Shown in pieces: positions 6,401 through 44,000 of a stretch of DNA of 64,000 bases. Each line of letters starts with the position of its first letter. Within the stretch, counting starts at the first letter, position 1. Made by a program: the position numbers and the translations under genes. Origin of the DNA: Haliotis rufescens (taxonomy: Eukaryota); assembly GCF_023055435.1 (NCBI RefSeq), contig NW_025963779.1, positions 36,642,001 through 36,706,000 on the forward strand. The letters are read 5' to 3'. The notes under the pieces were generated by a model that saw nothing but the letters and a program-made list of their open reading frames with translations, made no database searches and was not told the origin of the DNA.

Positions 6401-9400
6401 ACTGATATATGTAGCATCTCTACTTGGACATGCTGCCCACCTTTGAGTGCTGGCACATAGTTGTGGGACTTCTCCAGGATGGTCTTGTACTCCGCCACAG
6501 CCTCGGGGTATTCTCCTAGGGTCTGCTTAATGCTGGCAATTCTGTAGTCAAACATGAAAAGAGATTGTTATAGATAACCATTAAAAACATTAGTATTACA
6601 ATGAAAAGAACACACTTTTTACAGGTGCCAATGCCAGTAAGTGATGTGAAAATTTTGTCCATGTTGAGTGGTTGAGTGAGTGGTTGAGTGTTTGAGTGAG
6701 TGTTTGAGTGAGTGTTTGAGTGAGTGGTTGAGTGGTTGGGTGAGTGAGTGAGTGAGTGAGTGAGTTTTTATGATGAACTTTGCAACATTCAAACAATATC
6801 ATGAAGTGGGCTCCACACATCTTTAGGAAGTGACATTCAAGATGTTGGGTGGGTAGGAAGTAATCATGTACTCACTGGAAGAGACTGTACACTGATTCTG
6901 GGTTCAACTGTAATGAAAGAAGTTATGAGTCATGTTACATTGTTGAGGGTTCATGCCAATCTTTGGAAACAAATTCAAGCACTTGTAAAGTAACTTTCAT
7001 GTAACCTTTCACCACAGTCAAAGGCACTGTTATCAAATCAAGTACACATACATATTTGAAATGTCCAGGTGATTACAGGTTGTTGTTTTTAAACAGTCAG
7101 ATTGCTGTATGAACAGACACATTCCTTTTACAATGGTTTGCACCTATCATTTCTACTATTACCGCTACATTGATCATTTTCTTAAGTATAAGTACTTAAA
7201 AAGGTGCAATGGATTTCATAGAATTCTGAGACTCTTTACCCACCATGCCCACCAAAACACATTGCGCAAAAGTCTTTATGATATTCGATCAAACACCCCT
7301 ACACCATCAATCAAGACATAATTATGTCTCCTCAACATTTCTGCTTCATTGTACATGTTATAAAATGTCAAAATCAGACAAGAAATTTGTTCTCAAATGT
7401 ACCTAAAATGAGCACTGATTTTGACCACACTATATGAGTGAGTATTGTTTTATGCCATTTTTACCAATATTCCAGCAATATCACGGCAGGGGACACCAGA
7501 AATGGGCTTCATACATTGTACCCATGTGGGGCATCAAAACCGGGTTTTCAGTGTGACGTACGAACACTTTAACCACTAGGCTACCCCACCGCCCTGCCCC
7601 ACACAACATGAAACAAAGCAGTTTGGTTTGTGGTATATATACTTGAAAGCAATACTTGACTGTAACATCTCCCTGACTACTTCTGTCCTCACCTCAGCTG
7701 CCTTTGTGAACGTCTTGAGAGCTGCTGTGTAGCTCCCCCGGTGCAGGTAAGCCTCGGCCAAACACTCCCACACATGGCTGACAAAAGGAAAATGGTGATT
7801 GTAGTAGCTGCCTATAAATAATCATCTGGATATCACGTCCCATTCTGTTGGGGTATGATGACACATCAGCCAATTCACTGAGGAAGTGAGTGAGTATGGT
7901 TTTACGCTGCTTTTAGCAATATTCCAGCAATATCACAGCGGGGGACACCAGAAATGGGCTTCACACATTGTACCCATGTCGAGAATCAAACCCAGGTCTT
8001 TGGCATGACGAGCAAATGCTTTAATCACTAGGCTACTAGACCGCCCCTCACTGAGGAAGATCTCATTATTTCAGTTGCCATGTGTGACAAGAATATCTTC
8101 ATCCGGGATACAGAGGAGGGAAATGTGAAATGTACACATGGTTACAAAGACCAAGGCGCAAATACAGGGTGTCATTTGAATACTTTACCTTCCAATATAT
8201 TAATACTTAATATAAATTTAACACTTGGACTGCTTTAAAAAGTGTCTCTCCATGGCCAGAGTGAATAATGAAACATCTCAAGCAAATATTTAATATCCGA
8301 TTGCAAAACATACAGAAACAGGTATTGTGATTTTTATACATATTTTCTATCATCTATTCACAAAACAGTCATCATATATATGATGCATCTGTCTTCTTTC
8401 AATAATGATTTTAAAACACTCTAACTGGCAAGTTATATTCTGCTGTGTCATGATCATGCTTGCCAATAACTAGAGTTTATGGCCCCCTTTCACAAAGTAG
8501 CGCTACGACTGTCGTAAGTTTACGTTAAAGTTTAGGAGTTACTGTCGTACTGCGGTCCCTTTGCTCTATGACAGTCATAACTCCAATACGTTAACATATA
8601 TCAACCAGTGGTAGTGCTAAGACTGCTTTGTGAGGCAGGGACCATGTTAGAACATGGGTTCTTACTTGTCTCGGGGGTCTGCTCTGAGAGCCGCCTGGAA
8701 TGATGCCACGGCGATGGTGGGGTCGTCATGTCGCACCTGATACAGACCTAGCCTCAGCCAGGCCCACTTGCCACTAGTCATACAAACACACATAATGAGA
8801 AAAAATACTCCACAAAAAGCACTGTTGCTTATACTGTTGTCTAAATCTTAATGCTGTGATAAAAGCTGAATCCCACTGTAGTGCTACATATCCTACCACA
8901 ATAGCAGCTTTGGGGTCTTTTCATGCGTGAAGACAATGCTTACCAGTATGGGTAAACATTTTTCCACAATTGAAGAACATCTTTTCAAACTTAAAAATAT
9001 ATTTCCATGCTATGAACAAATCCAAGTCACATCATAATACAGATATTGTTTGCCACAATACCAATACAAACTGTTTAATATCTACATCCCTAGTAAATAG
9101 TTCTAATTCAAACAAACAGTTGGCCTGCACTCACCAGCCAGCATTGGCCTGACTTGTGGCAGCCTCCAGAAGGGCCTTGGCTTCCTCCTGCAACCAGTAA
9201 CATCTCTACAGGCACAGCTCTATAACACAGCCCCTCATCTACGGGGACCATTGTTATGGATTGGAAATTGAAAAATCTTGGACTGGAATCAGCCTTTCAT
9301 CTAACCTGACATTAGTGGCCCAGTGACAAAAGTGGCCCAGTGACACAAGCGGCCCTGTGACATAAGTGACACAAGCGGCCCTGTGACATAAGTGACACAA

Positions 9401-12400
9401 GTGGCCCTGTGACATAAGTGACACAAGTGGCCCTGTGACATAAGTGACACAAGTGGCCCTGTGACATAAGTGACACAAGTGGCCCTGTGACATAAGTGAC
9501 ACAAGTGGCCCTGTGACATAAGTGGCCCAGTGATATAAGTGGCCCAGTGACACAAGTGGCCCAGTGATATAAGTGGCCCAGTGACACAAGTGGCCCTGTG
9601 ACATAAGTGACACAAGAGGCCCTGTGATATATAAGTGACTTAAGTGGCCCAGTGACACAAGCGGCCCTGTGATATAAGTGGTCCTGTGACATATGTGGCC
9701 CCTTAACACAAGTGGCCCTGTGATATAAGTGGCCCAGTGACACAAGTGGGCCCCGTGACATATGTGACACAAGTGGCCGAGTGATATAAGTGGCCCTGTG
9801 AAACAAGTGACACAAGTGGCCCTGTGACATAAGTGACACAAGTGGCCCTGTGACATAAGTGGCCCAGTGATATAAGTGGCCCAGTGACACAAGTGGCCCA
9901 GTGATATAAGTGGCCCAGTGACACAAGTGGCCCCGTGACATAAGTGACACAAGAGGCCCTGTGATATATAAGTGACTTAAGTGGCCCAGTGACACAAGCG
10001 GCCCTGTGATATAAGTGGTCCTGTGACATATGTGGCCCCTTAACACAAGTGGCACTGTGATATAAGTGGCCCAGTGACACAAGTGGGCCCCGTGACATAT
10101 GTGACACAAGTGGCCCTGTGATATAAGTGACATAAGTGGCCCTGTGACACAAGTGGTCCTGTGATATAAGTGACATAAGTGGCCCAGTGACATAAGTGGC
10201 CCAGTGACACAAGTGGCCCTGTGACATAAGTGGACCTGTGACACAAGGGGCCCTGTGACACAAGTGGACCCGTGACACAAGTGGCCTAGTGACACAGTGG
10301 CCCAGTGACACATGTGGCCCTGTGTTATAAGTGGCCCAGTGACACATGTGACCCTGTGTTATAAGTGGCCCAGTGACACCAGTGACATAAGTGACACCAA
10401 TGGCCCTGTATCAAAGTGGCTGGTGACAAAGTGGCCCTGTTACAAAATGGCCTGGTGACAAAGTGACCCTGTTACAAAATGGCCCTGTGATAAAGTGGCC
10501 CTGTTACAAATGGCCTAGAGACAAAGTAGCCTAGTGACAAAGTGGCCCTGTGACAAAGTAGCCTAGTGACAAAGTGGCCCTGTGACAAAGTGGCCAAGTG
10601 ACAAAGTGGCCCTGTGACAAAGTGGCCCTGCTACAAAATGGCCCAGTGACAAAATGGCCCTATGGAGGTTTTTCTCTTGGAAGAAATAAAGTTGTTCATC
10701 ATGCCCTTATACAAAGCATTTGTCGTCTTTCAATAATCATTAATATATTTCACCTGACATCTAATAATCTGCTATGTCATGATCACATATTCCAATAACC
10801 AGGGCCCAGTTTCACACAGCGACTGTAGTGCTATAACAGTTGTAACTCCTATACTTCAACATGAAGGGGGCGCCAACAATAGGCTTTGATAGTGAGGAGA
10901 ATCGGACACTGTGCTGGTCTTTGGCATGACAAATGAAGGACTACATGTCTTGACCAACCCAACACCCTTATAAGAAGACCTTATTTCCATCAAAACAGTT
11001 TCAGTTGTGACTTACATCTTCACCAATGGCGACCAAGATGTCACAGAGTGCAGCTCCAGCCTCCTCATTAGCAGGGTCAAGGTCGTACGCCTTCTGATAG
11101 CAACGCTTGGCTTTTCTGTTTAATAGTGTTAAAAAGAAAGTGACAAAAAACAGATCAGGATAACTGAAGTTGACAGCTGAATCAACATCACTACCACTGC
11201 CAGTTAACATCAAAAGAAGCCATGAGCAAACTAAAGGGAGTCAACTCAACCATCAGGTTGAATACATACACATTCTCCTTCTGCACAGTGGCGTAGAAGT
11301 GTCCCAGGTAGAGGAATATGTCACTATTGTAGGGGTCAAGTTTGGCTGCCTGAAACATGATAAACATTTATGTATGATGTGCAATGTCATTTTGTTTCAA
11401 TGAACATACAAATCAAGTATTATCTTTAAGTGTATTATCAGAAGCTGTAGTATCAGTGAAGATTTCAACTTCTTTCAATGTGACACTAAATCCCTAAGTC
11501 AATCAAATGTTGGCCACATGGGCCTTAGGAAAGCCCTAAAACATCTCTTCTGCATCCCTCACCTTAAGGTAGGCCTTGAAACATCTCTCCTGCACCCCTC
11601 ACCTTAAGGAAGGTCTTGAAACATCTCTCCTGCACCCCTCACCATAAGGAAGGCCTTGAAACATTTCTCCTGCACCCCTCACCTTATAGAAGGTCTTGAA
11701 ACATCTCTCCTGCACCCCTCACCTTAAAGAAGGCCTTGAAACATCTCTCCTGGACCCCTCACCTTATAGAAGGCCTTGAAAATCCTTCCCGCACCCCTTA
11801 CCTTAAGGAAGGCCTTGAAACATCTCTCCTGCACCCCTCACCTTATAGAAGGTCTTGAAACATCTCACCTGCACCCCTCACTATAAGGAAGGCCTTGAAA
11901 CATCTCTCCTGCACCCCTAACCTCAAAGAAGGCCTTGAAACATCTCTCCTGCACCCCTCACCTTGAGGAAGGCCTTGAAACATCTCTCCTGCACCCCTCA
12001 CCTTGTGGAAGGCCTTGAAACATCTCTCCTGCACCCCTAACCTCAAAGAAGGCCTTGAAACATCTCTCCTGCACCCCTCACCTTAAGAAAGGCCTTGAAA
12101 CATCTCTCCTGCACCCCATCCTGGCCTTCGGTGTCTCGCAGCTGCCACAGGACTCGCCCCAGCATGTACTGGTGTCCACTCACACCGGGGGCGTCCTCAG
12201 TCAGCTTCTCAAACCTGTCACAACAGACAGGCCCAAACTGTGCAACTTCTAGGTAATACCTACACAAGCTTTGATACCATCTCTTTGAGGACTAATTGGG
12301 TTCACAAAACAATGTTCAGTTTAATTGTTATACTGATTAAGTACTGGATATGAAAGTATTCTGATCTGTGATGATCTGTTCTTTTAAGGGTATGACAATC

Positions 12401-15400
12401 AACTTCTGCTTGTGAGTTTAAACTTTTACAAACCTGTAGAGGTTATGAATTCTCTGATGAAATCCTCCTTGGGGCACTTATTGCATTTTCCTTGCTCAAG
12501 AAAATCTACATGACATAGTTGTAACCATTTTTCTTTAATAAAAAATGTTACCACACAAAAAACTTCGTTTTTGTATGATATACGACCACCTTTACGGGGC
12601 CTCACCCCCAACGGCGCCTCACGCCAGGGGGAGCAACTCTCACCCAAATCACTTTCCATATGTCTAATGCTGACGGAATGAGGGGAGGTGGGTGGCCGTG
12701 CCCCAAGGAGGATTTCATCAGAGAATTCATAACCTCTACAGGTTTGTAAAATTCTCTTTCTGATTAAATCCTCCTTGGGGCACTTATTGCATCAAGACAG
12801 ACTCCCAAAGATAATCTAGGAAGTGGCATCCATCAGCAACAGGCGTAAATAAATACATCGTATTTGATTATTCAACAGAATAAAATATTGAGTTCAATAA
12901 ATGAAACCAACCTTATCGTGAGGCACCACCGTCGAAAGGCGGGGGCTAGAGACAGGGCGTGGTCGACCATATATTATGATAAAGCCTGTTTTTGCGGCTT
13001 GTCATAAGTTGAGAACTCGAAACACCTCCCACCCCCCACACTTTTTTTGAACAAGTGATATAGGGGCGTAGATCACGAGAGACCATAACCAGCACTGAGC
13101 TAGGCCAGAGGGTCCCCGAGGATCGAAGGAGTGCGTGCGCAAAATACGATGATTATCGAGTAGTAAGGACTGATATTTATCGACCGTAGAAGATAAAATC
13201 CGGACCATTACTGAGCAGTATAACCGGAAGACTGTCTAAAATCTCGAATGCTCAATCAGCTAGAGATTAGAACTTTGCCCAGTTCGGAGAACTGACTGAC
13301 CAAACCGAGTACGCTCGCTTGAGTGTTTGTCGAGTTGGTAAGGTTTGATGAATCGTGCTCGGCTGGCTCCAAATAGCCGCGGAGCAGATCTGCTCAAGTG
13401 GCAGAGCCGCGGCGTACGCTTTTGACGCAGCCACTGCTCTAACCTAATGAGCCTTCAACCTGGTAGGGGGGTCCCTGCCTTTAAGCGTATACGCTGTACA
13501 AATGGTTGAAACTATCCACCTCGAGATAGATTGTTTACTCTCAGGTGAGCCAACCTTCCTACCGCCGTAACAGCAAAATAGTTGGTTATCCTTACGGACA
13601 CCCATATTTCTGCTGATATAGGCCTTGAGAGTCGTGCGGACATCCAAGACATGAGCATGTCTTGCAGTGGTCCCCGACGAGGAAGGCTGTGAAAGAGCAG
13701 GTAGCTCAATAGGAGCCGTTCACGTGGAATCGTGTGCGACCCTAGGACGGTAAGGGTCCGGTAGTCGAAAACTGACTCTGTCCCGGTGATATTTATCGAC
13801 CGCATGGAAGACAGTTATTTCGTGATCGGCTGACATAACACGAATGTCGCCTACCCGTCTGCCGGACGTTACCACCACAAGGAACGCCGTCTCCCAGCTC
13901 AACAGCTGAAGAGAGAGAGACAACAGATCCCGAAAAGAAGGACCGGACAGCCAATCGAGAATGATTGACAAGTCCCAAGGGGGACTGATCCGCCGGACTG
14001 GCGGTCGGATCCTGTCCACACCTGCTAAAAAGCGCTGCACTAATGGGTGTGCACCCAGAAGTGCCCTGACGACAGGGACGTGAAAAGCTGCGATAGCTGT
14101 AGAGTACCCTCGGACTGTTGATGCGGCCAGGCCGTCATCTAGTCGCGACTGGAGAAACTCAAGCACGGATACGAGATCTGCAGAAAAAAGATCTGCAATC
14201 CCTCTATCGACACACCAGGGCGCATAGCAGGCCTATCTATCGTACTGAACGTTTGTCGAATCCCTCCGCGAAGCCAGTATTGTGTCTGCAACTCGTGCAG
14301 GAATACCGCTCTTCTGGAGGCGATTCCTGACAGTGGCCAAGCCACCCATTGAATCCTGAGATTCAGGTGGAGGGCCCCGTTCTGGGATAGGAGGTCCGGT
14401 CGTAAAGGTAATATATCAGGAGGCTGAGCCAGAAACCTGAGTATTACTGGAAACCCACTCTGCGCCGACTAAAGAGGTGCCAGGAGCACAAGTAGTCGCG
14501 CAGGCTGAGTGGCTAGCTGAGACAGGACCTTGGAAATCAGAGGTACTGGGGAGAATGCCCCCAGAACTGTCCGTCCAATCTAGCTGAAAGGCGTCCGGTG
14601 CCACCGACCTCGGGTCGTGGACTCGGGAGCAGAACGTTGGTGTCTGGTAATTTAACCAAGACGCAAACAGATCCACCTGTAATGACCTGTATAACAGGGA
14701 GAAAATTCCGAATATCCCCGGGTCGAGCCTCCACGCCGTTCCCCCCTGCTTCCGGATGTAAGTCATCGCTGTTTGGTTGTCCATCTCTAGACGAACCACT
14801 TGGCCACGAAGCAGATCCGGGAAGCGTTGGAACACCAACCTGACCGCTCTCAGTTCTAGCACATTGATATGCAGTTTGATCTCCTGCTGGGACCATAGTC
14901 CCGAGGCAGTGTGATCATTCAGAACGCCTCCCCAGCCGGAGAGTGACGCGTCTGTTTGAACTGTGAGAGACGGAACGGGAGTGATTCCCGACCTCGGTCC
15001 ACCACTGGAGGTGTGTAATGAGCCACTACGGAGTCTAGAGATCTTCCGAGTTCGCCCAAAGTCGACGGAGTGCTTGTTGAATGGGACTCATTCTCAAGCG
15101 CGCCCGCCAGACCAAATCCACTGTCGCCGCCATGTTGTCCAGTAACTGGAGCCATGTACGAGCAGTGTGACTTGCGCTTAAGGGATTTGATATCTTGTGA
15201 CAGAGATACACGTCCTCTCACCTCAGATCTGACTTCTTGAGATTGACCATCCACCCTAGAGTGATCAGAATATCTATCACTTGTTGTGTAGCTATCTGAC
15301 TCAGGGATTGCAATAGAGCTCTTAGTAACCAGTCGTCGAGGTACGGATGGCAGAACCGAACTTTTGACCTGGCCACTTGGGCGGGAATCAACATCAGCTT

Positions 15401-18400
15401 GGTGAACACCCTCGGGGCCGTGGAGACCCCGAATGGTAGAACCCTGAACTGATAACACCTCCCGTCGAAAGAAAACCTCAGGTATTTCTTGAAATCGGGG
15501 TGTATTGGTATGTGGAGATAGGCGTAGTTTAAGTCTATTGACGTTAGCCATTCTCCTGTCTCGACAGTTGAGATCACTGTTTGGTGACTAGGAAACAAGT
15601 CGAGTAGAAGCCCTCGCTTTCCTGTCCCTCGGGACCCGGTTCGATCGCAGCTTTCATAAGAAGTGCGTCGACCTCGGCACGGAGGAATTCCGCCTTCTCT
15701 CGGGTAGCAGGCACCGGAGTGTGCTTTATCTCGGAAAAGTGGAGGAGCGGATGAGTTTTCCACCGAGGCAAATGGCCATCCCTTAAAATGGACGGGGTCC
15801 GGGGATTGTGTTGTAACTGTCTCCCATTCCTTCAGGAATAGAGCCAGTCGGCCGCCTACGGGGACATCCGGCTGGAGGCAGTGGACAGTTCGATAACTTG
15901 CGACTGTGGGTTCACCCGGGGCTCTTCGGGCGCTAATGGGAACCCATCGTTCCCAGCCCTGCGAAAAAGCTGTTGGCCTCGACCAGCTGCCTTGCCCCGG
16001 CCCGTGCCTCTCTTGCTCCTCCCGGCGCCCTTATACCTGAAGGAAGCGGCGGCTTCCAAGCAGGTGTGGACGTCTGACCCGTGCGTTAGCGTAGGAGGGG
16101 ACAATTGGAGAGGCCCGCTTACGCGGTTTAAACGCTTGGTACCTCCAACAAGGCCTTATGAGTCTTTGATGGAAGTATACAATTGAGCAGCCTCTCGGAC
16201 CACCTGCTGAGCCCCAGGGAAGAGGGTGGCACCCTCTTATACGGCAAAGCAAGTAGGTCTTGGCGTGTGTAAGTCGAGTATTTAGATACCGACATCCACC
16301 GCCTGCGAATGCCCATAACAGCGCACATCATCTGCGAGGCACAGCTACGAATAGCGTCCCGCGCAAGATAACTGAACTTCCGTTAGTTGCGCGGCCAACT
16401 CCGAAGAGTCGGCCGGCCCCTCTCCCGCTAACTCCCTCTGTACAGCCGACAGATACGCGGAGTGTACGGACACACGGAGCTGTTGGCATGCATTATGATA
16501 TTGCTCCTCGAAGCAAGTCAAGTTGGGTGTCTCCGACTCTGGCATGGGCGCAGCCACCTGAGGCAGTACCTGGACAATCCTGTCCCGCACGTGTCTCTGC
16601 ACCCGGCCCGAGGCCGAGTCCCGGTGCCGAGGTGCCGGAGGTTCCAGGGAACCCACCTGGCACTGGGCTAGGTATCCACTAGTGAAAGCCTTGGCCTCGG
16701 AAGAGGCGTCTGGCTCCGCTAGGGAAAATTGTGCGTCGGTAGTGCACGGGACGGTGCCCGCCACCACTACGCTGGGGAGCGACCTCGAGCCGGAGCCGAA
16801 GCTCGGTCTCAGATCGTCCCCGAGACAAAGGGAACCAACCTGGCTCCGGGCTAGGTATCCACTAGTGGAAGCCTCGGCCTCGGAAGAGGCGTCTGGCTCC
16901 GCTAGGGAAAATTGTGCGTCGGTAGTGCACGGGCCGGTGCCCGCCACTACTACGCTGGGGAGCGACCTCGAGCCGGAGCCGAAGCTCGGTCTCGGATCGT
17001 CCCCGAGACCAAGGGAACCCCCCTGGCTCCGGGCTACGAATCCACTAGTGAAAGCCTCGGCCTCGGAAGAGGCGTCTGGCTCCGCTAGGGAAAAAATGTG
17101 CGTTGGTAGTGCACGGGCCGGCACCCGCCACCCCTCCGCTGGGGAGCGACCTCGAGCCGGCGCCGAAGCCCGGTCTGAGATCGTCCCCGAGACCAAGTGG
17201 CCTGCCTCGGCCGACGCCGGGCATATCACAAGGTCTCAAAGCCGCGTCCGGCGCCGACAACGGGGAAGGCTCGGTCCGCATCTCCTCTCGGAGCTGAGAC
17301 TTTACCTCCTCCATCATCGACGCCATCTGCGACTTAAGTAACGCAGAAAAGTCTGCCAAAGACAGTGCAGGAGAGGGTGCAGTGCTTACTACGGGGACCC
17401 TCGAGCCTTCTCCCCCGGCCCCCGGAGAGGGAGCGGGGGAGACAATCTCGGCAGCTTTTTTTACCCTTTTTAGATGGGGAGGGGGGGATGTCTTAGTAGA
17501 TCTGATATCTACCCCCGCCTTTAATAGACCTCTTTAAAGTGGAACAAGTCAACTTGTCTCTTTTTGGGGGCCCCGGGGGGTAAAGGCAATGTCCTCCGCC
17601 AGACATATTAGGCAGCGTTCGCGCCTGTCTTAGAACAACCCGTACACAGTTTGAAGGTCTTGTAAACAAGACCGTATTCTCTTTCAGATTAAATCCTCCT
17701 TGGGGCACTTATTGCATTTTCCTGGCTCAAGAAAATCTACATGACATAGTTGTAACCATTTTCCTTAATAAAAATTGTTACCACACAAAAAACTTTGTTT
17801 TTGTATGATATACGTCCACCCTTATGGTGCCTCACCCTCCACGGCGCGTCACGCCAAGGGAAGCAACTCTCACCCAAATCACTTTCCTTATGTCATCTGA
17901 CAAAGACAGACGTGCTGTTTTTTTCAAGACAAAATAAAGACAAGATAATCGTTCGTACAAGAACCATGGCAGACCAAACTGTATGTATGGTACATTTCTT
18001 TCATGCAAAGGCGTAATACCTCGCATTGTAAAGTTATAAAGTTGTAATTATGTGACACGTGTACGATACCTTTGAAATGAAGGCCGTCGTAGCGTCCATT
18101 TTGTAGTGCCACGTATGATATATGTAACACCAGGGCCATCAAAAACGGCTTCGGTTTTTTAATCTATATCATCGGGCTTTAGCCTACATTCTTTTCCTTT
18201 AAATAAACCCAAGGTGGTGTGTTAATTATTTTAAATTACACTTACCTTTTTTACGGGTTTTCTACACCTTCGCGCGTAACACGCCCACTTTGGTGTTATA
18301 ATTATACTACGACATTGGCTATTAGTATCGCGTTACCAATCGCATTCTAAATTACGCCTTTGCTTCTAGTTACACAATTTATGCACGTATCTTTCCGATC

Positions 18401-21400
18401 TTTCAATCGCACTGATACACTTTATTACCCTTCCCGCCAAACTCAAAGATTACGGTCTTTTTTACAGACCTTCAAACTGTGTACGGGGTGCTCGGCTTCG
18501 ATTCCCCCCCAAGACAGGCATGATACTTGCATAAAGTGTTTGGCCGAAGACGGGCATGACGATGGGTCATGCCCGATCTGTGTTGCATTCACACCACGGG
18601 CACAGAAAAAGAGAAATGTGGACCTCTTACACTTTAAGGGTCTATTGAAGGCGGGGGTGGACATTAGATCGGCAAAGACCGCCCCGCCCCCCTCAAAAAA
18701 AGTAAGAAAGGGTAAAAAGGCAGCTGAGAATGTCTCCTCCGCTCCCTCCCCGGGGGCCGGGGGAGAAGGCTCTAGGGTCCCCGTCGCAATCACTGCACCC
18801 TCTCCTGCACCGTCTTTGGCAGACATCTCTGCCTTGTTGAGGTCGCAGATGGCGTCGATGATGGAGGAGGTAGAGGCAGGCCACTTGGTCTCGGGGACGA
18901 ACTCAGACCGGGCTTCGGCGCCGGCTCGAGGTCGCTCCCCAGCGGAGGGGTGGCGGGCACTGGCCTGTTCACTACCGACGCACAGTTCTCCCTAGCGGAG
19001 CCAGACGCCTCTTCCGAGGCCGAGGCTTCCTCTAGCGGATTTCTAGCCCAGAGCCAGGTGGGTTCCCTTGAACCCCCGGCACCTCGGGACCGGGACTCGG
19101 CTTCGGGCCGGGTGCAGCCCGGGGATGCGAAGGCCCAGGCCTTCGGGCGTCCCCTTCTGACTTCGTCTGTCTCTTCTCTCGGAGAAGAGTCGATTAATTT
19201 CGGCTCGGAATCAAGAGAGGAGGAGTGGATGGAGGAGGGGGGAGACGACTCGGAGACCTCGGGAATATTTTCCTTCGTTTCCTCGTTGAGGCATGTACGG
19301 GACAAGATTGTCCAGGTACTGCCTCAGGTGGCTGCGCCCATGCCCCAGTCGGATCCGACTGAGTTCCGCCTTCCGGGGGACGCTTTTGCTCCGAGCAAGG
19401 CGCCCCAGGTGCGGCTCCGTATTCTGTCTTCATTGGTGCATGAAGTCATCAACCCTCTGTTGTCGGGTGCCCGCAGGAAGTTCGACCTGCCCGAACTTAT
19501 TAAGCGGTACCTGTTAGCAGAGGATGGTGATTTTGAGGTACCGGTGGTGGACGAATGTGTCTGGACCTCCGTTACCCTGGGGGGGTCTTCGACCCCCAAC
19601 TTGGCTAAGGTCAAGCAGGGCCGGCGGTTGCCACCCTTTCCCGCGTGCGGTACGGAGCTGAAGGCTGCTTACGTTTGCTTCGAGGAGCTCCGGGTGTCCG
19701 TACACTCCGCTTATCTGTCGGCCGTACAGAGGGAGTTAGCGGGAGAGGGGCCGGCCGACTCTTCGGAGTTGGCCGCGCAACTTACGGAGGTACATAGTCA
19801 TCTTGCGCGGGACGCTATTCGTAGCTGTGCCTCGCAGATGATGTGCGCAGTCATGGGCATGCGCAGGCTGTGGATGTCGGTATCCAAATACTCGGCTTCC
19901 ACACGCCAGGATCTACTTGCTTTGCCTTATAAGATGGGTGCCACCCTCTTCCCTGGGGCTCAGCAGGTGGTCCGAGAGGCCGCACAGTTGAATGCCTCCA
20001 TCAAGGATTCTAAGGCCTTGTTGGAGGTACCATGCGTTAAACCGCGTAAGCGGACCTCTCCACTTGCTTCCTCCTACGCTGACGCGCCGGGTCAGAAGTC
20101 TGCACCTGCTTGGAAGCAGCCGCTTCCTTCAGGTAAGGGCGCCGGGAGGAGCAAGAGAGGCAGGGGCCGGGGCAGGGCAGCTGGTCGAGGCCAGCAGCCT
20201 TTTCGCGGGGCCGGGAACCCATCGGGTTCCCGTTAGCGCCCGAAGCGCCCCGGGCGGATCCACGGTCGCATGTTTTCGAACTGCCGACAGCCAGGGTCCG
20301 CTGCCTCAAGCCGGATGTCCCCGTAGGCGGCCGACTGGCTCTATTCCTGCAGGAATGGGAGACAGTCACATCCAATCCCTGGACCCTGTCCACTCTAAGG
20401 GATGGCCATTTGCCTCGGTGGAAACATCATCCGCCCCCCTTCTCCGGGATAAAGCACACTCCGGTGCCTGCTACCCTGGAGAGGGCGGAATTCCTCCGTG
20501 CCGAGGTCGACGCACTTCTTATGAAGGCTGCGATCGAACCGGTTCCCGTGGAAAGCGAGGGCTCCTACTCGACATATTTCCTAGTCACCAAAAAAGACGG
20601 AGGGTTCAGGCCTATTCTCAATCTGAGAAGGCTGAACAAACTTATAGAGGTACCGTCCTTCAGGATGGAGACACTGCGCTCGGTGATCTCAGCTGTCGAG
20701 ACCGGAGAATGGCTAACGTCAATAGACCTAAAAGACGCCTATCTCCACGTACCCATACACCCCGAGTTCAAGAAATACCTCAGGTTTTCTTTCGACGGGA
20801 GGTGTTATCAGTTCAGGGTTCTACCATTCGGGATCGCTACGGCCCCGAGGGTGTTCACCAAGCTGATGTTGATTCCCGCCCAAGTGGCCAGGTCAAAAGG
20901 TCGGTTCTGCCATCCGTACCTCGACCACTGGTTACTAAGAGCTCTATCGCAATCCCTGAGTCAGATAGCTACACAACAAGTGATAGATATTCTGATCACT
21001 CTAGGGTGGATAGTCAATCTCAAGAAGTCAGATCTGAGCCCTACTCAGAATCTAGTCTTCCTAGGGGCGAATTTCAACACGGTGAGCGGACTTGTATCTC
21101 TGTCACAAGATCGCATTACCAAGGTCAGAAGTGTTACTTCCCAGTTCCTTCTGTCCGCCAGTCACACTGCTCGTACATGGCTCCAGTTACTGGGCAACAT
21201 GGCGGCGACAGTGGATGTGCGCTCCGTCGACTTTGGGTGAACTCGGAAGATCTTGAGACTGTTCTCGAGACTCCGCAGTGGCTCAATGCACACCTTCAGT
21301 GGTGGACCGAGGTCGGGAATCTGTCCCGGGGGCCCCCCCTCGACACTCCCGTGCCGTCTCTCACAGTTCAAACAGACGCGTCACTCTCCGGCTGGGGAGG

Positions 21401-24400
21401 CGTTCTGAACGATCACACTGCCTCGGGACTATGGTCCCAGCAGGAGATCAAACTGCATATCAATGTGCTAGAACTGAGAGCGGTCAGGTTGGTGTTCCAA
21501 CGCTTCCTGGATCTGCTTCGTGGCCAAGTGGTGCGTCTAGAGATGGACAACCAAACGGCGATGACTTACATCCAGAAGCAGGGGGGAACGGTGTCTCCGT
21601 CGCTTCTCCAAGAGACGTGGCAGTTCCTCCTATGGTGCGACTCACACGTTATCAGGGTGCTACCTGTTTATCTCCCGGGGGTAGACAACGTCCGTGCGGA
21701 CGCTCTGTCTCGCCGGATCCTCGCTCCTCACGAGTGGAGGCTCGACCCGGGGATATTCGGGATTATCTCCCAGTTATACAGGTCGTTCCAGGTGGATCTG
21801 TTTGCGTCTGCGGTGAATCACCAGACACCAACGTTCTGCTCCCGAGTCCCCGACCCGAGGTCGGTGGCACCGGACGCCTTCCAGCTAGATTGAACGGACA
21901 GAATACTGTGGGCATTCCCCCCAGTACCTCTGATTTCCAAGGTCCTGTCTCAGCTAGCCACTCAGCCTGCGCGACTACTTGTGCTCCTGGCACCCCTTTG
22001 GTCGGCGCAGAGTTGGTTTCTTGTCATACTCAGGTTTCTGGCTCAGCCTCCTGTTCTATTACCTTTACGACCGGACCTCCTATCCCAGAACGAGGCCCTC
22101 CACCCGAATCCCAGGATTCAGTGGGTGGCTTGGCCACTGTCCGGAATCGCCTCCAGGAGAGCGGTATTCCTGCACGAGTTGCAGACACAATACTGGCTTC
22201 GCGGAGGGATTCGACAAACGTTCAGTACGAGGATAGATAGGCCTGCTATGCGCGCTGGTGTGTCGATAGAAGGATTGCAGATCCCTTTTCTGCAGATCTC
22301 GTAGCCGTACTTGAGTTCCTCCAGTCGCGACTAGATGTCGGCCTGGCCGCATCGACAGTCCAGGGGTACTCTACAGCTATCGCTGCCTTTCACGTCCCCG
22401 TCGACGGGGCACTTTTGGGTGCGCACCCATTAGTGCAGCGTTTTTTAGCAGGTGTGGACAGGATCCGACCGCCTGTCCGGCGGATCAGTCCCCCTTGGGA
22501 ATTGTCAATCGTTCTTGATTGGCTGTCCGGTCCTTCTTTTCGGGATCTGTCGTCTCTCTCTCTTCAGCTGTTGAGCTGGAAGACGGCGTTCCTTGTGGCG
22601 GTAACGTCCGGCAGACGGGTAGGCGACATTCACGCAATGTCAGCCGATCCCGAACTAACTGTCTTTCACCGGGACAGGGTCAGTATTCGCCTGCCGGACT
22701 CTTACCGTCCTAAGGTCGCACACGCCCTCCACCTGACGGCTCCTATTGAGCTACCTGCTCTTTCACAGCCTTCCTCGTCGGGGACCACTACAAGACATGC
22801 TCATGTCTTGGATGTCCGCAGGACCCTTAAGTCCTATATCAGCAGAACTAAGGGTATCCGTAAGGATAATCAACTATTTTGCTGTTATGGCGGTAGGAAG
22901 GCTGGCTCACCTGCGAGCAAACAAACTATCTCGCGGTGGATAGTCTCTACTATATGTACGGCGTACACGCTTCAAGGCAGGGACCCCCCTACCAAGTTGA
23001 AGGCTCATTCGGTTAGAGCAGTGGCTACGACACAAGCGTATGCTGCGGCTCTGCCCATTGAGGAGATCTGCTCCGCGGCTATTTGGAGCCAGCCGAGCAC
23101 GTTCATCAAACATTACCAACTCGACAAACACTCAAGCGAGCGTGCTCGGTTTGGTCAGTCAGTTCTCCGAACTGGGCAAAGTTCTACATCTCTAGCCGAT
23201 TGAGCCTTCGAGATTTTAGACCGCCCGGACCGGTTATAACACTGCTCAGTAACGGTCCGGATTTTATCTTCTACGGTCGATACAATACCAGCCATTACTA
23301 GTCGATAATCATCGTAATTGCACATGCACTCCTTCGATTACGGGGACCCTCTGGCCTAGCTCTGTGCGGGTTTATAGTCTCTCGTGATCTGTGCCCCCAA
23401 TATCACTTGTTCAAAAAAGTGGGTGGGGTGGGGGGTGTGTGTGTCTCGAGTTCTCGATATGATAAGCCACAAAGAATGGCTCTTTTCATTGTGTATGGTC
23501 GATAACGCCCTGTCTCCAGCCCCCGCCTTTCGACGGTGGTGCCTCACGATAAGGTTGGTTCCAATTATTGAACTCTTGTTTATTCATTGAAATAATCAAA
23601 ATACGATGTATTTTATGCACGCTTGTTGCTGACGGATGCCACTTCCTAGATTATCTTTAGGAGTCTATCTTGATGCAATAAGTGCCCCAAGGAGGATTTA
23701 ATCTGAAAGAGAATTTTACAAACCTGTAGAGGTTATGAATTCTCTGATGAAATCCTCCTTGGGGCACGGCCACCCGCCTCCCCACATTCCGTCAGCATTA
23801 GACATATGGAAAGTGATTTGGGTGAGAGTTGCTTCCCTTGGCGTGACGCGCCGTGGTGGACGTATATCATACAAAAACAAAGTTTTTTGTGTGGTAACAA
23901 TTTTTATTAAGGAAAATGGTTACAACTATGTCATGTAGATTTTCTTGAGCCAGGAAAATGCAATAAGTGCCCCAAGGAGGATTTCATCAGAGAATTCATA
24001 ACCTCTACAGGTTTGTAAAAATTTCTGAGGTGGGCTGGAAGGGTATCAACGTGTATCAGTGCGATATAAAGATCGGAAAGATACGTGCATAAATTGTGAA
24101 ACTAGAAGCAAAGGCGTAATGTCGAATGCGATTTGTAACGCGATACTAATAGCCAATGTCGTAGTATAATTATAACACCAAAGGGGCGTGTTACGCGCTA
24201 AGGTGTAAAACCCGTAAAAAAGTAAGTGTAGTTTATGAATTAACACACCACCTTGGGTTTTGTAAAGGAAAAAATTGTAGACCAATGCTGTATGATATAA
24301 CAAAACCTTAAGCCGTTTCTTAATGGCCTTGGTGTTACATGTATCAGCCCGTGGAACTACAATATGGACGCCATTACGGCCATTTGAATTCAAAGGTACC

Positions 24401-27400
24401 GTGCACGTGGCGTATTATTACAACTCTATAACTTCACAATGCGAGGTATTACGCCTTTGCAATGAAAGAAATGTACCATACATACAGTTTGGTCAGCCAT
24501 GGTTCTTGTCGAATGATAGATTTCTTTTATTTTTGTCTTGTGTGAAAAATCAACACGTCTGTCTCTTACAGATGACATAAGGAAAGTGATTTGGGTGAGA
24601 GTTGCTCCCCCTGGCGTGAGGCGCCGTTGGGGGTGAGGCCCCGTAAGGGTGGTCGTATATCATACAAAAACGAAGTTTTTTGTGTGGTAACATTTTTTAT
24701 TAAAGAAAAATGGTTACAACTATGTCATGTAGATTTTCTTGAGCAAGGAAAATGCAAAAAGTGCCCCAAGGAGGATTTAATCAGAAAGAAAATTTTGTAT
24801 ATAAATTTCAAACTGTAAACAATAATAATGCCAAGTGTCATATGTAGTATTGCATTACATGCTAATCACAGATTAATGTAGTCATTTTGTCTCAGTAGAT
24901 AATGAACTATTGAATGTAACAGTTGCTAGAAGCGTGTCCTACCGTGTGAGAGCCTCCTGGTGCTGGCCTGTGTGGAACAGGATCCGGCCACGGAGGGCCT
25001 CTCTCTCACCATCAGTCTCTGGCACATCGCCCAGGTGGTGCTGACAATACACATTCACAAATGGGGAATTAATCATGTTAAGGTTTCAGGTTTGATATCA
25101 GGTTAATTTGATAATTCTGATAGGATTAACATTATCTTTGAGTCCTTGATAGGCATTTTAAAGTGGGTACGAAAAAATAACAAGACATTGGAATGACAAC
25201 TTCTGAAACAATTTCAATATTTGAGAAAAAAAGGTTTGCTTTAGCCGTATGTGTTGAGTAAGGATGTAATTCCCTAATACAGTTGAAGAACAAAACTGCA
25301 TGCAGATCAGTGGAATAAAGTGTTGGATAAAATCTTCTTCTGCTCTCTTTGTTTCATCTCTTTTCAACAATGACCTTTTAAAAACTGATGATAAGTTTTG
25401 TAAAGCAGAAATAGCATGATCACAATGATTTAATGGAGAGGTGTCTTGTTGACTGACATGAGTGAATGCTACAGTCAGCAATATTCCAGCTGCATCACCA
25501 AATAATCTCGTCAGCGCCTACCGCAAACTAGTGGTTGACAACATGAGCGATGATTCACACCATCAGGGTATGAAGACACACATTGCAACATGGTTGTCAT
25601 TAGTTTGGGTCTTTACACGTCAGTTGCAGGGCATCCCTTCTGCCCTGGTATCCTCACAGGGGTCTTGTTGATGCAGTGGAGCAAGGACTACTAGGCCTTG
25701 TCATGCTGCTATCTGTCCTAACTGGTTCCCCTCACATTCATCTACACTAACCTGTGCATCTGCTATATTCCCTTGCTTCAGACAAATGTATACCAGGAGG
25801 CTTCTAGACTCTGGACTTTCAATCACATCCTGAAAATTGAGTGAAGAAATGAATCTCCAATCTGTACATGTTAGTAATAACTTTAATTAACAAAGGAAAT
25901 CAAACTTAGGAGCTCATAAAGCAGAAAATAACCACATAACTGATCAATGTCACGACTACCAGATTTCAAGATTTGATCAGTGAACTGAGGATTGCAATTT
26001 ACTATGATCTCATAACCTGAAATTGCAAACCAACTGGATTTATTGTTTAATTGTTATTTAACGCCACACTCAGCAATATTACAGCTAAATGACAGCGGTC
26101 TGTCAATATTCGAGTCTGGACCAAAACAATACTGAGATACAAGCAGATGTGCCTTGTTTTTCCAAGGTTGTTGTCATAGAATGAATATACAACTCTCAAT
26201 GTATTTAGAAGTAGACAAAAATTTAAATGATTAAGGGTGCTGGCTGTTTCTCAAGTTACATGTGCTTAACAGTTTAATGTGTTTGTTGTTTAACGCCGCA
26301 CTCAGCATATTCCAGCTATATGATGATGGTCTGTAAATAATCGAGTCTGGACAAGACAATCCAGTGATTGACATCATGAGCATTGATCCACGCAATTGGG
26401 ATACGATGAAATGCATCAACTAAGTCAGCGAGCCTGACCACCCAAATCCCGCCTTTTACAGCAAGCATGGGTTGCTGGGATCTTCACAGGCTCAAACCAA
26501 CAGGATGAAACAAAACAATTTAGTGGGGAGTAAATGTATTAAGAATGACGACAGACATGACTTGTTTGTAAATGTAATGGTCAGTCAGTTCAACTCATAC
26601 ATGGTTGTCAGCTTTTAGCAGTGGGGGGTGTGACTGCTGACAGTGATCAGCCATGCAGGCTCAAGCTCCTCACATATGTGGAGCTCCCTACACTATCACT
26701 GCCACCAGTCACTGTAATAGGCGGCCACAGAACTGACTCTACAGACTAGGGGGAGATAACTCTAGATGTGTACCTGTGACAGGATCTCCCTTGCCTGTGC
26801 CAGACAGTGGTGTGAACCGACTCTACAGACTAGGGGCAGATAACTCTAGATGTGTACCTGTGACAGGATCTCCCTTGACTGTGCCAGACAGTGGGGTGTA
26901 CCGACTCTACAGGGGGCAGATAACTCTAGATGTGTACCTGTGACAGGATCTCCCTTGACTGTGCCAGACAGTGGGGTGAACCGACTCTACAGGGGGCAGA
27001 TAACTCTAGATGTGTACCTGTGACAGGATCTCTCTTGCCTGTGCCAGACAGTGGGGTGAACCGACTCTACAGGGGGCAGATAACTCTAGATGTGTACCTG
27101 TGACAGGATCTCCCTTGCCTGTGCCAGACAGTGGGGTGAACCGTCTCTACAGGGGGCAGATAACTCTAGATGTGTACCTGTGACAGGATCTCCCTTGCCT
27201 GTGCCAGACAGTGGGGTGAACCGACTCTACAGGGGGCAGATAACTCTAGATGTGTACCTGTGACAGGATCTCTCTTGCCTGTGCCAGACAGTGGGGTGTA
27301 CCGACTCTACAGGGGGCAGATAACTCTAGATGTGTACCTGTGACAGGATCTCTCTTGCCTGTGCCAGACAGTGGGGTGAACCGACTCTTCAGGGGGAAGA

Positions 27401-41025: not shown

Positions 41026-44000
41026 ATGACACGCTTTGCGAGAGCCGGTAATGCTAAGAAGATCCCACATGATGGTACAGAGTGGAAGGATATGTTTGGA
41101 AGTGGTAGTGAATCCAAACAGAAGTCAGACAGTGTGTCCAAAACACAAGGGAAAAAACATGACAAAAAATTCAAGAAATTCAAGAAGGATAAAATGAATA
41201 AGAAAGTCAAAGGCATTGGAAAAAATATAAAGGTTGATGAACAAAAGCCATGGCAAGTGAACAGTACTACTGGTGATAAGATGAAGGAACGGGCTATGAG
41301 GAATCAGTTCTTCCGGGATAAAAAAAGTGAACAGAGGCGTGTACAGAGGAAGGATGATAGAGACCGATATCTGGTAAGACATGCTGGTGCAAGGTGTGAT
41401 CTCAGTGTTCCTGTTTACCGGTAATTACCAGTAATTTACCAGTAAAATTAGGTTTGGACTGGTAATTCATGTGACTGCCTGTCCCTGTGGACCGGCAAAT
41501 AAACTACCCCATAAATCTTTGTTGTTGAACAAAACATTGGCGATATTCATATAACTATATTTTCGAACGAAGTCAGCTTGTCTGTCCATCAGGGTTTCCC
41601 CTGTCTATTTTTAGTGCAAGGAAATAACATTCACTTTGCTTTCGAAATTAAATCTGTATTTCTATCAAATTAGGCGTGAAATATTCAAAGAAAGGAGAGA
41701 AAATTGTTACTGGACTTTGTGTGAATGACGTGTAGATCTATCCAAGTTACTTCAGATATGATGTCATGGCATTAAACCTGATGTTGAAAGAACATACAGT
41801 TTTTGATTTGTTGAATGTCGGAACTGACAAAAATTAGGTGGGACTGGTAATTTTCAGAGTTGCCAGTCCATCATGTCAATCAGGACTGGCAGTTTCAAAA
41901 GCCAGCAGGAACACTGGATCTTTTATTTTGCATGTTTAATAAACAACTTGGGCTGTAACTCATGGTGAAACACTGATGTCATATCAGAAATGACCATGCT
42001 AGGCATGCTTACAGCCCCTAAAACATCCAAGTGTTCCTGCTGGCTTTTGAAACTGCCAGTCCTGATGGACACGATGGACTGGCAACTCTAAAAATTACCA
42101 GTCCCCAATCATTTTTGTCAGCCCCAACTTTCAATAAAATAAAAATATATGAAAATTACCTGGTTTTAATTCTTTCAACATCATGTTTAATGCAATGACG
42201 TCATCTCTGAAGTAACTTAGTTAGATCTACATGTCATTTACACAAAGTGCAGTTACAATTTTCACCTATTTTTTTTTTTATATTTCGAGACAAAGTCGTT
42301 ACAAATATATATTTCACCTCGAAGCAAAGTAAAATGTTATTTTATTGCATCAAAAACAGGCAAGGGGAAACACTGATCAGGCTGATGGTAACAGACATGC
42401 TGACTTTGTCGGAACAATAGACTTATATCATGTATATGAATATCGCTGATGTTATGTTTAACAACAACCACCTATAGGGTACTTTATTTGCCGGTCCACA
42501 GGGACTGGCAGTCACATGAATTACCGGCCCAAGCCTAATTTTACCGGTTAAAAACTGGTATTACCGGTAAACAGGAACACTGCATCCCCTTCTTTCAGGT
42601 CGCACTATAGAAACTGGTCATATTCCACTTTATACATGATCTAAGATATGTTGGGTCCAACCAGTACAAATAATCCTGATTATAGGGTCTGCTCACATGT
42701 GATTTTTATATAACATGTAAACACACACAGCATTATCATGGAATGGCTTTTGAAATATCCCTATACTGTTATTGTTAATCTTGGTGAAACTTCCCAAATT
42801 TGAATTAAATATTTTGCAATTACACAACTCAGAAATGTGAGTCCACCATGCTCAATGTTAGAATGGATGCAGGAAAAAATATAGTGCGTCCCAAGGGATG
42901 CACAGTACTATTCATTGTACCAAATTCTTGACAAGAAATACATGAAATATAAGATCCTGTGATTAATGTAATGATGAAATCCTACAATACAGTACATGAC
43001 ACCATTACTTTACAGGACCCTCATATCAGCTGTATTGACTCTTGAAATGAATTATTGGGGGTGCCCTGGACCCCCAGTGTTGTAGGGCAAGGTAAACCAT
43101 GTGATACACTGTGATGTTACTGATATACTCCTCAAAGTGACATTAAACCCAAATCCTCCTAATTACCAAATTTTTCCAATTTTTTAAAATCCTAGATATT
43201 AAAAGTAGAGACGCTAGCTGGATCTTGATTCCCACTTACCAAAACTGAAAAAACATCATGGACATTTTGATAAGGTTCTTTATCATGTTTATGTGAAACA
43301 TTTACTTTTTACAATGTTCTTATAACATTGCACAAGCCTCCCTGGATCCCTTAAGTCTTGGAACTAAATGCTTCACTGGACAAACAACTCCTATTATCAT
43401 CTAGAATGTCAGAGTTGTATCATCAGTGCCCTTGTGTAGATGTGTGGTGTCTCCTGTGTAGGTGTGTTTCAACTGCCGGAAGCATGGTCACCGGATGGGA
43501 GACTGCCCCCAGACGAAAGGCTCCAGCAGTCATGGCACAGGCATCTGCTTCAAATGTGGCTCCACGGAGCATGTGTCAAGTGCATGTTCCGCAAAAGTAG
43601 CTCCAGGTAGGGTTCTTGGGTTTCCTCAGGATAAGGGCATTTCTTATTTAAGGTGTTTTTGTATCCCTACCGCACATTGCATGATGGACATGTCTGTACA
43701 TCTGTCCATAATGTTTGAACACAATTATTTATATTGTGGACATTTAGTTTACCGTTTTTGCCGTAATAAGCGCCATGGGTGCTATGAAAGCTAACAAAGG
43801 GGAATTGCTTGTTGAAACCATACAAGGTAAATTTGATGTCAGAGCGATAGAGAATGGACATATTCAAACAGGAAACTTTTCTGTTTCATTAATAGCTTCC
43901 AGGACCTTATATACCCTATTAAGACGACTCTGTTTTATGAAAACAGAGCTGTACGATAAACAAGAAAATATTACTTTCATATAAAAGTTTGGGCTTAAGA

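Follow-up and report, generated by a model that had tools for sequence, protein, structure and literature searches.

Probable splicing of a five-codon leader exon to gag in a nested DIRS1-like retrotransposon of Haliotis rufescens

We analysed a 64,000-nt stretch of the Haliotis rufescens genome (assembly GCF_023055435.1, contig NW_025963779.1, positions 36,642,001 to 36,706,000 of the forward strand), which is called the window here and is numbered from its first letter. Our subject is a DIRS1-like tyrosine-recombinase (YR) retrotransposon at 17676–24026 on the + strand, full length and decayed, whose gag gene appears to obtain its start codon from a small upstream exon. Its parts were defined by self-comparison of 12000–25500 with BLAST, by open reading frames and by domain searches, and all lie on the + strand. 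The left inverted terminal repeat (17684–17894) is 89% identical to the right one (23801–23991), and the element's internal complementary region (ICR, 23673–23767), delimited by self-BLAST and reading frames, matches and joins both element ends. The predicted second exon of gag (18468–20236) encodes an N-terminal cysteine finger, a LAP2alpha-like region and a basic tail. It is followed by pol (20137–22160), with reverse transcriptase (RT), RNase H and methyltransferase-like motifs, and by the catalytic part of the tyrosine recombinase (22157–23203). Decay of the element is seen as a gag frameshift near 18.9 kb, a pol deletion and in-frame stops.

This inner element is nested in opposite orientation within a related copy on the − strand (24796–24027, then 17680–12420), the outer copy. 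The 5′ arm of the outer copy (24027–24796) holds the left repeat, a mini-exon (24500–24486), the donor and most of the intron discussed below, and its 3′ arm (12420–17680) holds the intron end, an AAG acceptor (17661–17659), a decayed gag, pol, YR, ICR and right repeat. The outer-copy gag also contains three tandem repeats of about 183 nt (16646–17197), compared with a single unit in the inner copy. The two copies differ at about 9–10% of coding positions and at 13.8% of the leader. Insertion occurred at a TTCT core that is common to both junctions and the ICR junction, without target duplication, and the outer copy shows the same arrangement of inverted terminal repeats and ICR.

The domain matches are of uneven strength. 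RT is clear (PF00078, E 7.4e-20), while RNase H (PF17917, E 0.00016) and the LAP2alpha match of the gag frame (PF11560, E 0.0008) lie under the curated cut-offs; the homolog P0004 exceeds the latter cut-off. The recombinase at the 3′ end matches the phrog_1 integrase (E 5.7e-5) and has no match in Pfam. The methyltransferase-like motifs after RNase H, which were picked out by eye, are split by a stop, and neither a Pfam match nor an annotated PHROG match to a methyltransferase was found in the element. According to PMC4495291, the LAP2alpha domain is itself derived from DIRS1 gag. Gag, RT, RNase H, recombinase, inverted repeats and ICR are defining DIRS1-like features in the accessible text of PMC3266345; therefore, the element is a DIRS1-like retrotransposon. 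The PAT/Ngaro class, which has split direct repeats, was ruled out, since the element ends are inverted. The promoter likely lies within the left inverted repeat. The nearest named homologs are gene models of Haliotis rubra. As a separate observation, a QQPFRG motif at about 20190–20207, at the gag end and within the gag–pol overlap, is invariant in five aligned gags amid the variable basic tail.

The gag frame has no start codon close to its zinc finger, as an earlier note on this DNA had pointed out: among the 15 ATGs in 17676–18560, only the one at 18381 is open into the gag frame. The same note had proposed that gag begins on a mini-exon, and the signals that it named are all present in the sequence. 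The ATG at 17966 stands in the context GAACC-ATG-G and opens five codons (17966–17980, +), the coding part of the predicted leader exon, ahead of a GTATGT donor at 17981. At the other end, TCTTTTTTACAG ends at 18467 and is followed by the zinc-finger frame, giving a phase-0 join and a predicted spliceosomal intron of 487 nt (17981–18467, +) with a CAG acceptor. The ATG at 17966 is the first past the left inverted repeat and the only one of the 15 with a purine at −3 plus a G at +4. A candidate branch point, CTGAT (18412–18416, +), is the sole YTRAY match in 18301–18467 and is kept in the outer copy. Every signal expected of a U2 spliceosomal intron (GT donor, branch point, pyrimidine tract and AG acceptor) is present. 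The outer copy keeps the mini-exon with its ATG at 24500–24498, one synonymous change and an identical donor, as had been described. It also has the AG acceptor claimed for it, in the form AAG and not CAG. The inner insertion is indeed close to that acceptor, at a refined distance of 17 nt (22 nt including the shared 5-nt core) instead of about 18. Only one AG lies between the branch point and the acceptor, and it is private to the inner copy, since all four of the sequencing runs described below have A at 18448.

We ranked the splice sites against all AGs and GTs on the element sense strand, using a human-type matrix. The acceptor at 18467 ranks second of 374 AGs. The chance of finding an ATG followed by an in-frame, phase-0 donor was estimated from 5000 dinucleotide shuffles of the leader, under definitions ranging from strict to loose. 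Such a pattern arises in 0.4% of shuffles for a strict Kozak context and donor and in 16% for any ATG with a loose donor. Whichever of the seven definitions is applied, the donor at 17981 is the leader's only match. The ATG–donor pattern is above chance, modestly when taken alone. Between the inner and outer copies, the mini-exon and donor show two changes in 45 nt compared with 13.8% in the leader (p=0.04), and the best-conserved leader stretch is a block at 18280–18410, with seven changes in 131 nt. Taken singly, these lines of evidence are all modest. Searches for further DNA relatives found none: viral contigs were blank, and metagenome and genome contigs were blank or gave unrelated weak matches. 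These matches, one to RT in a metagenome contig (L001) and one in a genome contig (L002), were not used.

The N-terminal register of homologous Gag proteins provides a further comparison. A search with the finger against 1.84 billion representatives returned 43 proteins; of the 53 proteins stored afterwards, 37 fit the finger pattern, 31 of them distant. The spacing from the nearest Met to the finger Phe is 7 in 18 of the 31 distant DIRS gags and does not exceed 17 in any of them. In the present element the finger Phe is residue 7 from the spliced start and residue 31 from the ATG at 18381. A Gln two residues ahead of the Phe is found in all three close contig-called lineages in which this region is visible and in 3 of the 31 distant ones (p=0.003, a post hoc comparison), which is the product expected when a phase-0 CAG is read through. 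The close lineages counted are the present element, P0004 and P0007/P0050/P0052, with 43–47% identity between lineages; P0001, P0002, P0003, P0006, P0047, P0048 and P0049 were left out, because their called starts lie within the finger or beyond it. In P0052, a run of Phe, Leu, Ile, Tyr and Ser, with U-rich codons, precedes the finger and resembles a translated pyrimidine tract. Judged by eye from protein sequence, the Haliotis rubra RefSeq models P0008 and P0051, which are predictions (XP_046554219.1 and a DHX37-like model), seem to enter a related finger one residue ahead of the Phe. These two and P0005 are apparent chimeras of host genes and DIRS fragments, probably annotation artefacts. 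No short product with the spliced N-terminus was found among 191 candidate proteins of 74–237 residues, and the ESM Atlas gave no usable match.

On these grounds, Gag is likely made by splicing the five-codon leader exon (17966–17980) to 18468, and the unspliced transcript would serve as the genome; we give this reading a probability of roughly 0.7. It is the best explanation, and it has independent support from the homologous Gag register, the strength of the acceptor and the failure of the rival ATG at 18381, which is treated below.

Several observations weigh against this reading. Four sequencing runs, available as contigs only, were aligned to 17676–23660; three are guessed to be RNA and one DNA. 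The 17980-to-18468 joint was not seen among the 15 of 41 joints listed, which come mostly from the DNA run, and a contig of run X1, one of the guessed RNA runs, spans 18307–18871 and crosses the acceptor unspliced. This contig shows that such a run contains unspliced sequence, but it neither proves nor excludes splicing, because silent copies transcribed by read-through, or DNA, would give the same picture. Contigs of X5 and X8 stop 9 and 24 bases beyond the acceptor, too short to count as bridging, and X5 has no cover at 17933 and 17947 and is therefore unable to show the junction. By the human-type matrix the donor at 17981 is only 44th of 376 GTs; a weak exonic side lowers its rank. A middle definition of the ATG–donor pattern is satisfied by 1.9% of shuffles, yet by 15 of 230 tiles taken from the real window sequence. 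With two copies for comparison, 20–26% of leader windows are conserved as well as the mini-exon and donor, mostly from the block 18280–18410. The AAG acceptor of the outer copy has two additional AGs just upstream. Among the homologs, P0052 has a true Met four residues ahead of the Phe, and P0004 may have one too; these relatives, including the subfamily of P0052, could therefore start without an intron. Finally, RNA folding does not single out the intron. It folds better than 100 of 100 shuffles (z −3.9) and is closed by a perfect 13-bp long-range stem that is kept in the outer copy, with its 5′ arm at 18005–18017 (+) and its 3′ arm at 18351–18363 (+), inside the conserved block. However, seven other 370-nt windows of the element give z values of −1.0 to −7.1, the opposite strand folds equally well, and a two-sided change is seen in only 1 of 106 pairs.

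If the intron were absent, gag could be read from the ATG at 18381–18383 (+), which would add a 29-residue extension to the protein. Ribosomes might reach this ATG through leaky scanning or by a shunt across the folded leader, or an internal promoter might be used. The frame from this ATG is open in the inner copy. The outer copy has the ATG as well, and its location, 18 nt past the base of the long-range stem, would suit a shunt; the contig that crosses the acceptor unspliced also agrees with such a start. We nevertheless consider it unlikely. The ATG has a poor context, with T at −3 and C at +4, and its extension is not conserved as protein: between the inner and outer copies, 19 aligned codons show no synonymous and five non-synonymous changes, one of them a stop, whereas 91 codons of the neighbouring gag show 24 synonymous and 14 non-synonymous (Fisher p=0.012). 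This contrast indicates that selection acted on gag, and not on the extension, as the copies diverged, although the outer copy is dead and some of the changes in the extension may postdate the insertion. In addition, none of the distant gags has a spacing above 17, compared with 31 from this ATG, and the short upstream frame varies in length, since the outer copy and three of the four runs carry one more T at 18003. Initiation at the finger edge from a codon other than AUG, such as the CTG before the first Cys, with the mini-exon as a chance or regulatory upstream frame, is very improbable. Both copies have an in-frame CTG with A at −3, and the ATG–donor pattern by itself is only modestly above chance. 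However, a CTG start would lose the Phe and the basic residue with which the finger begins in almost all of the 37 proteins that fit its pattern, the codon in question encodes Lys, Arg or Pro and not Leu in close relatives, and the strong acceptor would be left unexplained.

The acceptor could also be real and be joined to another donor, either in a different leader exon of the left repeat or in host exons, or the intron could be real and constitutive enough that no special genomic RNA is needed. This group of explanations is improbable as well. The acceptor far outranks the donor, and the Haliotis rubra models join other exons at the same position, by eye. Nevertheless, 17966 is the only ATG in a full Kozak context, its donor has no competitor in the leader, and both are kept in the outer copy. 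In the DNA run, none of the best-supported joints is precisely intron-less, as would be expected if the intron is retained when the element is copied.

The proposed splicing of the leader exon to gag would operate as follows. Transcription would begin in the left repeat, and the U2 spliceosome would remove 17981–18467 via the branch point at 18412–18416 to give the Gag message. The RNA that remains unspliced would be the template for reverse transcription; its strong ATG opens only a dead-end frame of 16 codons, so little Gag would be expected from it. Reverse transcription would prefer the unspliced RNA, perhaps through a folded signal within the intron, and the intron would be kept in both copies because this RNA is preferentially copied. 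The stem in the intron might draw the two splice sites close to each other, or it might serve as a label of the unspliced RNA. An RNA structure specific to the intron is not supported, since the whole element folds well; with folding widespread, the opposite strand equal and a single covarying pair in 106, the packaging-signal step has no specific support. The strong folding extends across most of 17676–24026 and not into the host flanks, which are unstructured (z +2.1 to −1.5), and may relate to a single-stranded RNA or cDNA stage. In Dictyostelium DIRS-1, part of the cDNA still contained a marker intron that had been placed between the left repeat and ORF1, which counts in favour of the present reading; competition between splicing and retrotransposition factors at the 5′ end is the explanation suggested there (PMC7192593). 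Such competition is a possible route to intron retention here.

In a wider reading, which we hold to be less likely than not, one leader micro-exon may start all three proteins, being joined in phase 0 to 18468 for gag, to 20311 or 20353 for pol and to 22157 for the recombinase, with the unspliced RNA near-silent in translation and set aside as the genome through a folded signal within the first intron. The first Met of pol is at 20521, well past its conserved start near 20320. The candidate acceptor before 20311 is AAG in the inner and CAG in the outer copy; that before 20353 ranks third of 374 but is AAG in the outer copy; and that before 22157 is CAG in both copies, with a weak score. Alternatively, pol could be reached by a −1 frameshift in the 100-nt gag–pol overlap, in which no canonical slippery heptamer was found by eye, or through the strong donor at 20133. 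The site of this donor, CAG/GTAAGG at 20130–20138, is the top donor of the element (first of 376, phase 1, 100 nt ahead of the gag stop), and the outer copy has a 2-nt insertion within it. A second frame is open across RT at 19992–21219 and aligns with the recombinase frame past a deletion near 21219, forming a DIRS-1-style long overlap; in one RT stretch, substitutions fall mostly at the third position of this second frame (3/11/5). Both copies share an in-frame TAG at 22238–22240, early in the recombinase frame, which suggests that the two stem from a defective master copy or that the stop is read through.

Elsewhere in the window, a tandem array with a 39-nt unit occupies 1 to about 3200, with at least 76 units that are 96–99% alike. 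On the − strand, three long open frames at 9254–10410 are spurious products of a low-complexity repeat, and nested inverted repeats at 41426–42560, with arms of 106–128 nt and 86–88% identity, suggest a foldback element.

The element resembles the DIRS1-like retrotransposons described in PMC3266345, sharing gag, pol, YR, inverted terminal repeats, ICR and the lack of a target duplication, and it begins with ATT, as do most molluscan elements in Table 3 of that work. It differs in that its gag has no proximal start and that it has a long open frame overlapping RT, whereas that text reports no long overlaps in Mollusca. The words intron and splic- do not occur in the accessible text of PMC3266345 or PMC3783388, and a look-up of the same words gave nothing relevant in the available parts of PMC8547959, PMC6681497, PMC3537659, PMC9341512, PMC12477816, PMC13465315, PMC8226300, PMC5718144 and PMC3212892. 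Our literature search, which did not extend to key subscription papers and supplements, found no description of a start-codon micro-exon or intron at the start of DIRS gag. Goodwin and Poulter are reported to have described spliceosomal introns in some YR (DIRS/Ngaro) retrotransposons in Mol Biol Evol in 2004.

The rarity of introns in retroelements, to which the earlier note had appealed, was overstated: besides the introns just mentioned in DIRS-order elements, a spliced gag mRNA is conserved in plant Ty1/Copia elements (PMC5580714) and introns are retained in Penelope elements (PMC8557442). The plant Ty1/Copia element EVD is similar in that one locus yields a spliced Gag RNA and an unspliced full-length RNA; however, its splice lies after gag, around the protease, and leads to early termination, whereas the splice predicted here precedes gag and provides its start codon (PMC5580714). 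Penelope-like elements, like the present one, carry close to the 5′ end an intron that persists through retrotransposition, but these introns are in the 5′ untranslated region, overlap the promoter and belong to a different element class (PMC8557442). Spliced retrotransposon messages are thus already known, and the gain is a specific case, not a principle. Retroviruses give another comparison. Their leader carries the major splice donor, and the packaging signal lies inside the intron; the same layout would explain copying of unspliced RNA only. In retroviruses, however, gag is read from the unspliced RNA, whereas the spliced RNA is the proposed Gag message here.

The way in which a single compact, overlapping unit of a DIRS element gives rise to gag, pol and recombinase products is poorly understood. 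Should the splice to gag be real, the start codon would reside on a separate micro-exon, the message and the genome would be physically different RNAs, and survival of the element would depend on controlled intron retention. Annotation based on open reading frames would then truncate such Gags, as seems to have happened in several database relatives. If one exon does serve all three proteins, the protein ratios of DIRS1 elements would be set wholly by the choice of alternative 3′ splice sites, which would explain how overlapping reading frames are expressed, and a built-in acceptor ahead of gag would explain the ready capture of DIRS gag as a host exon.

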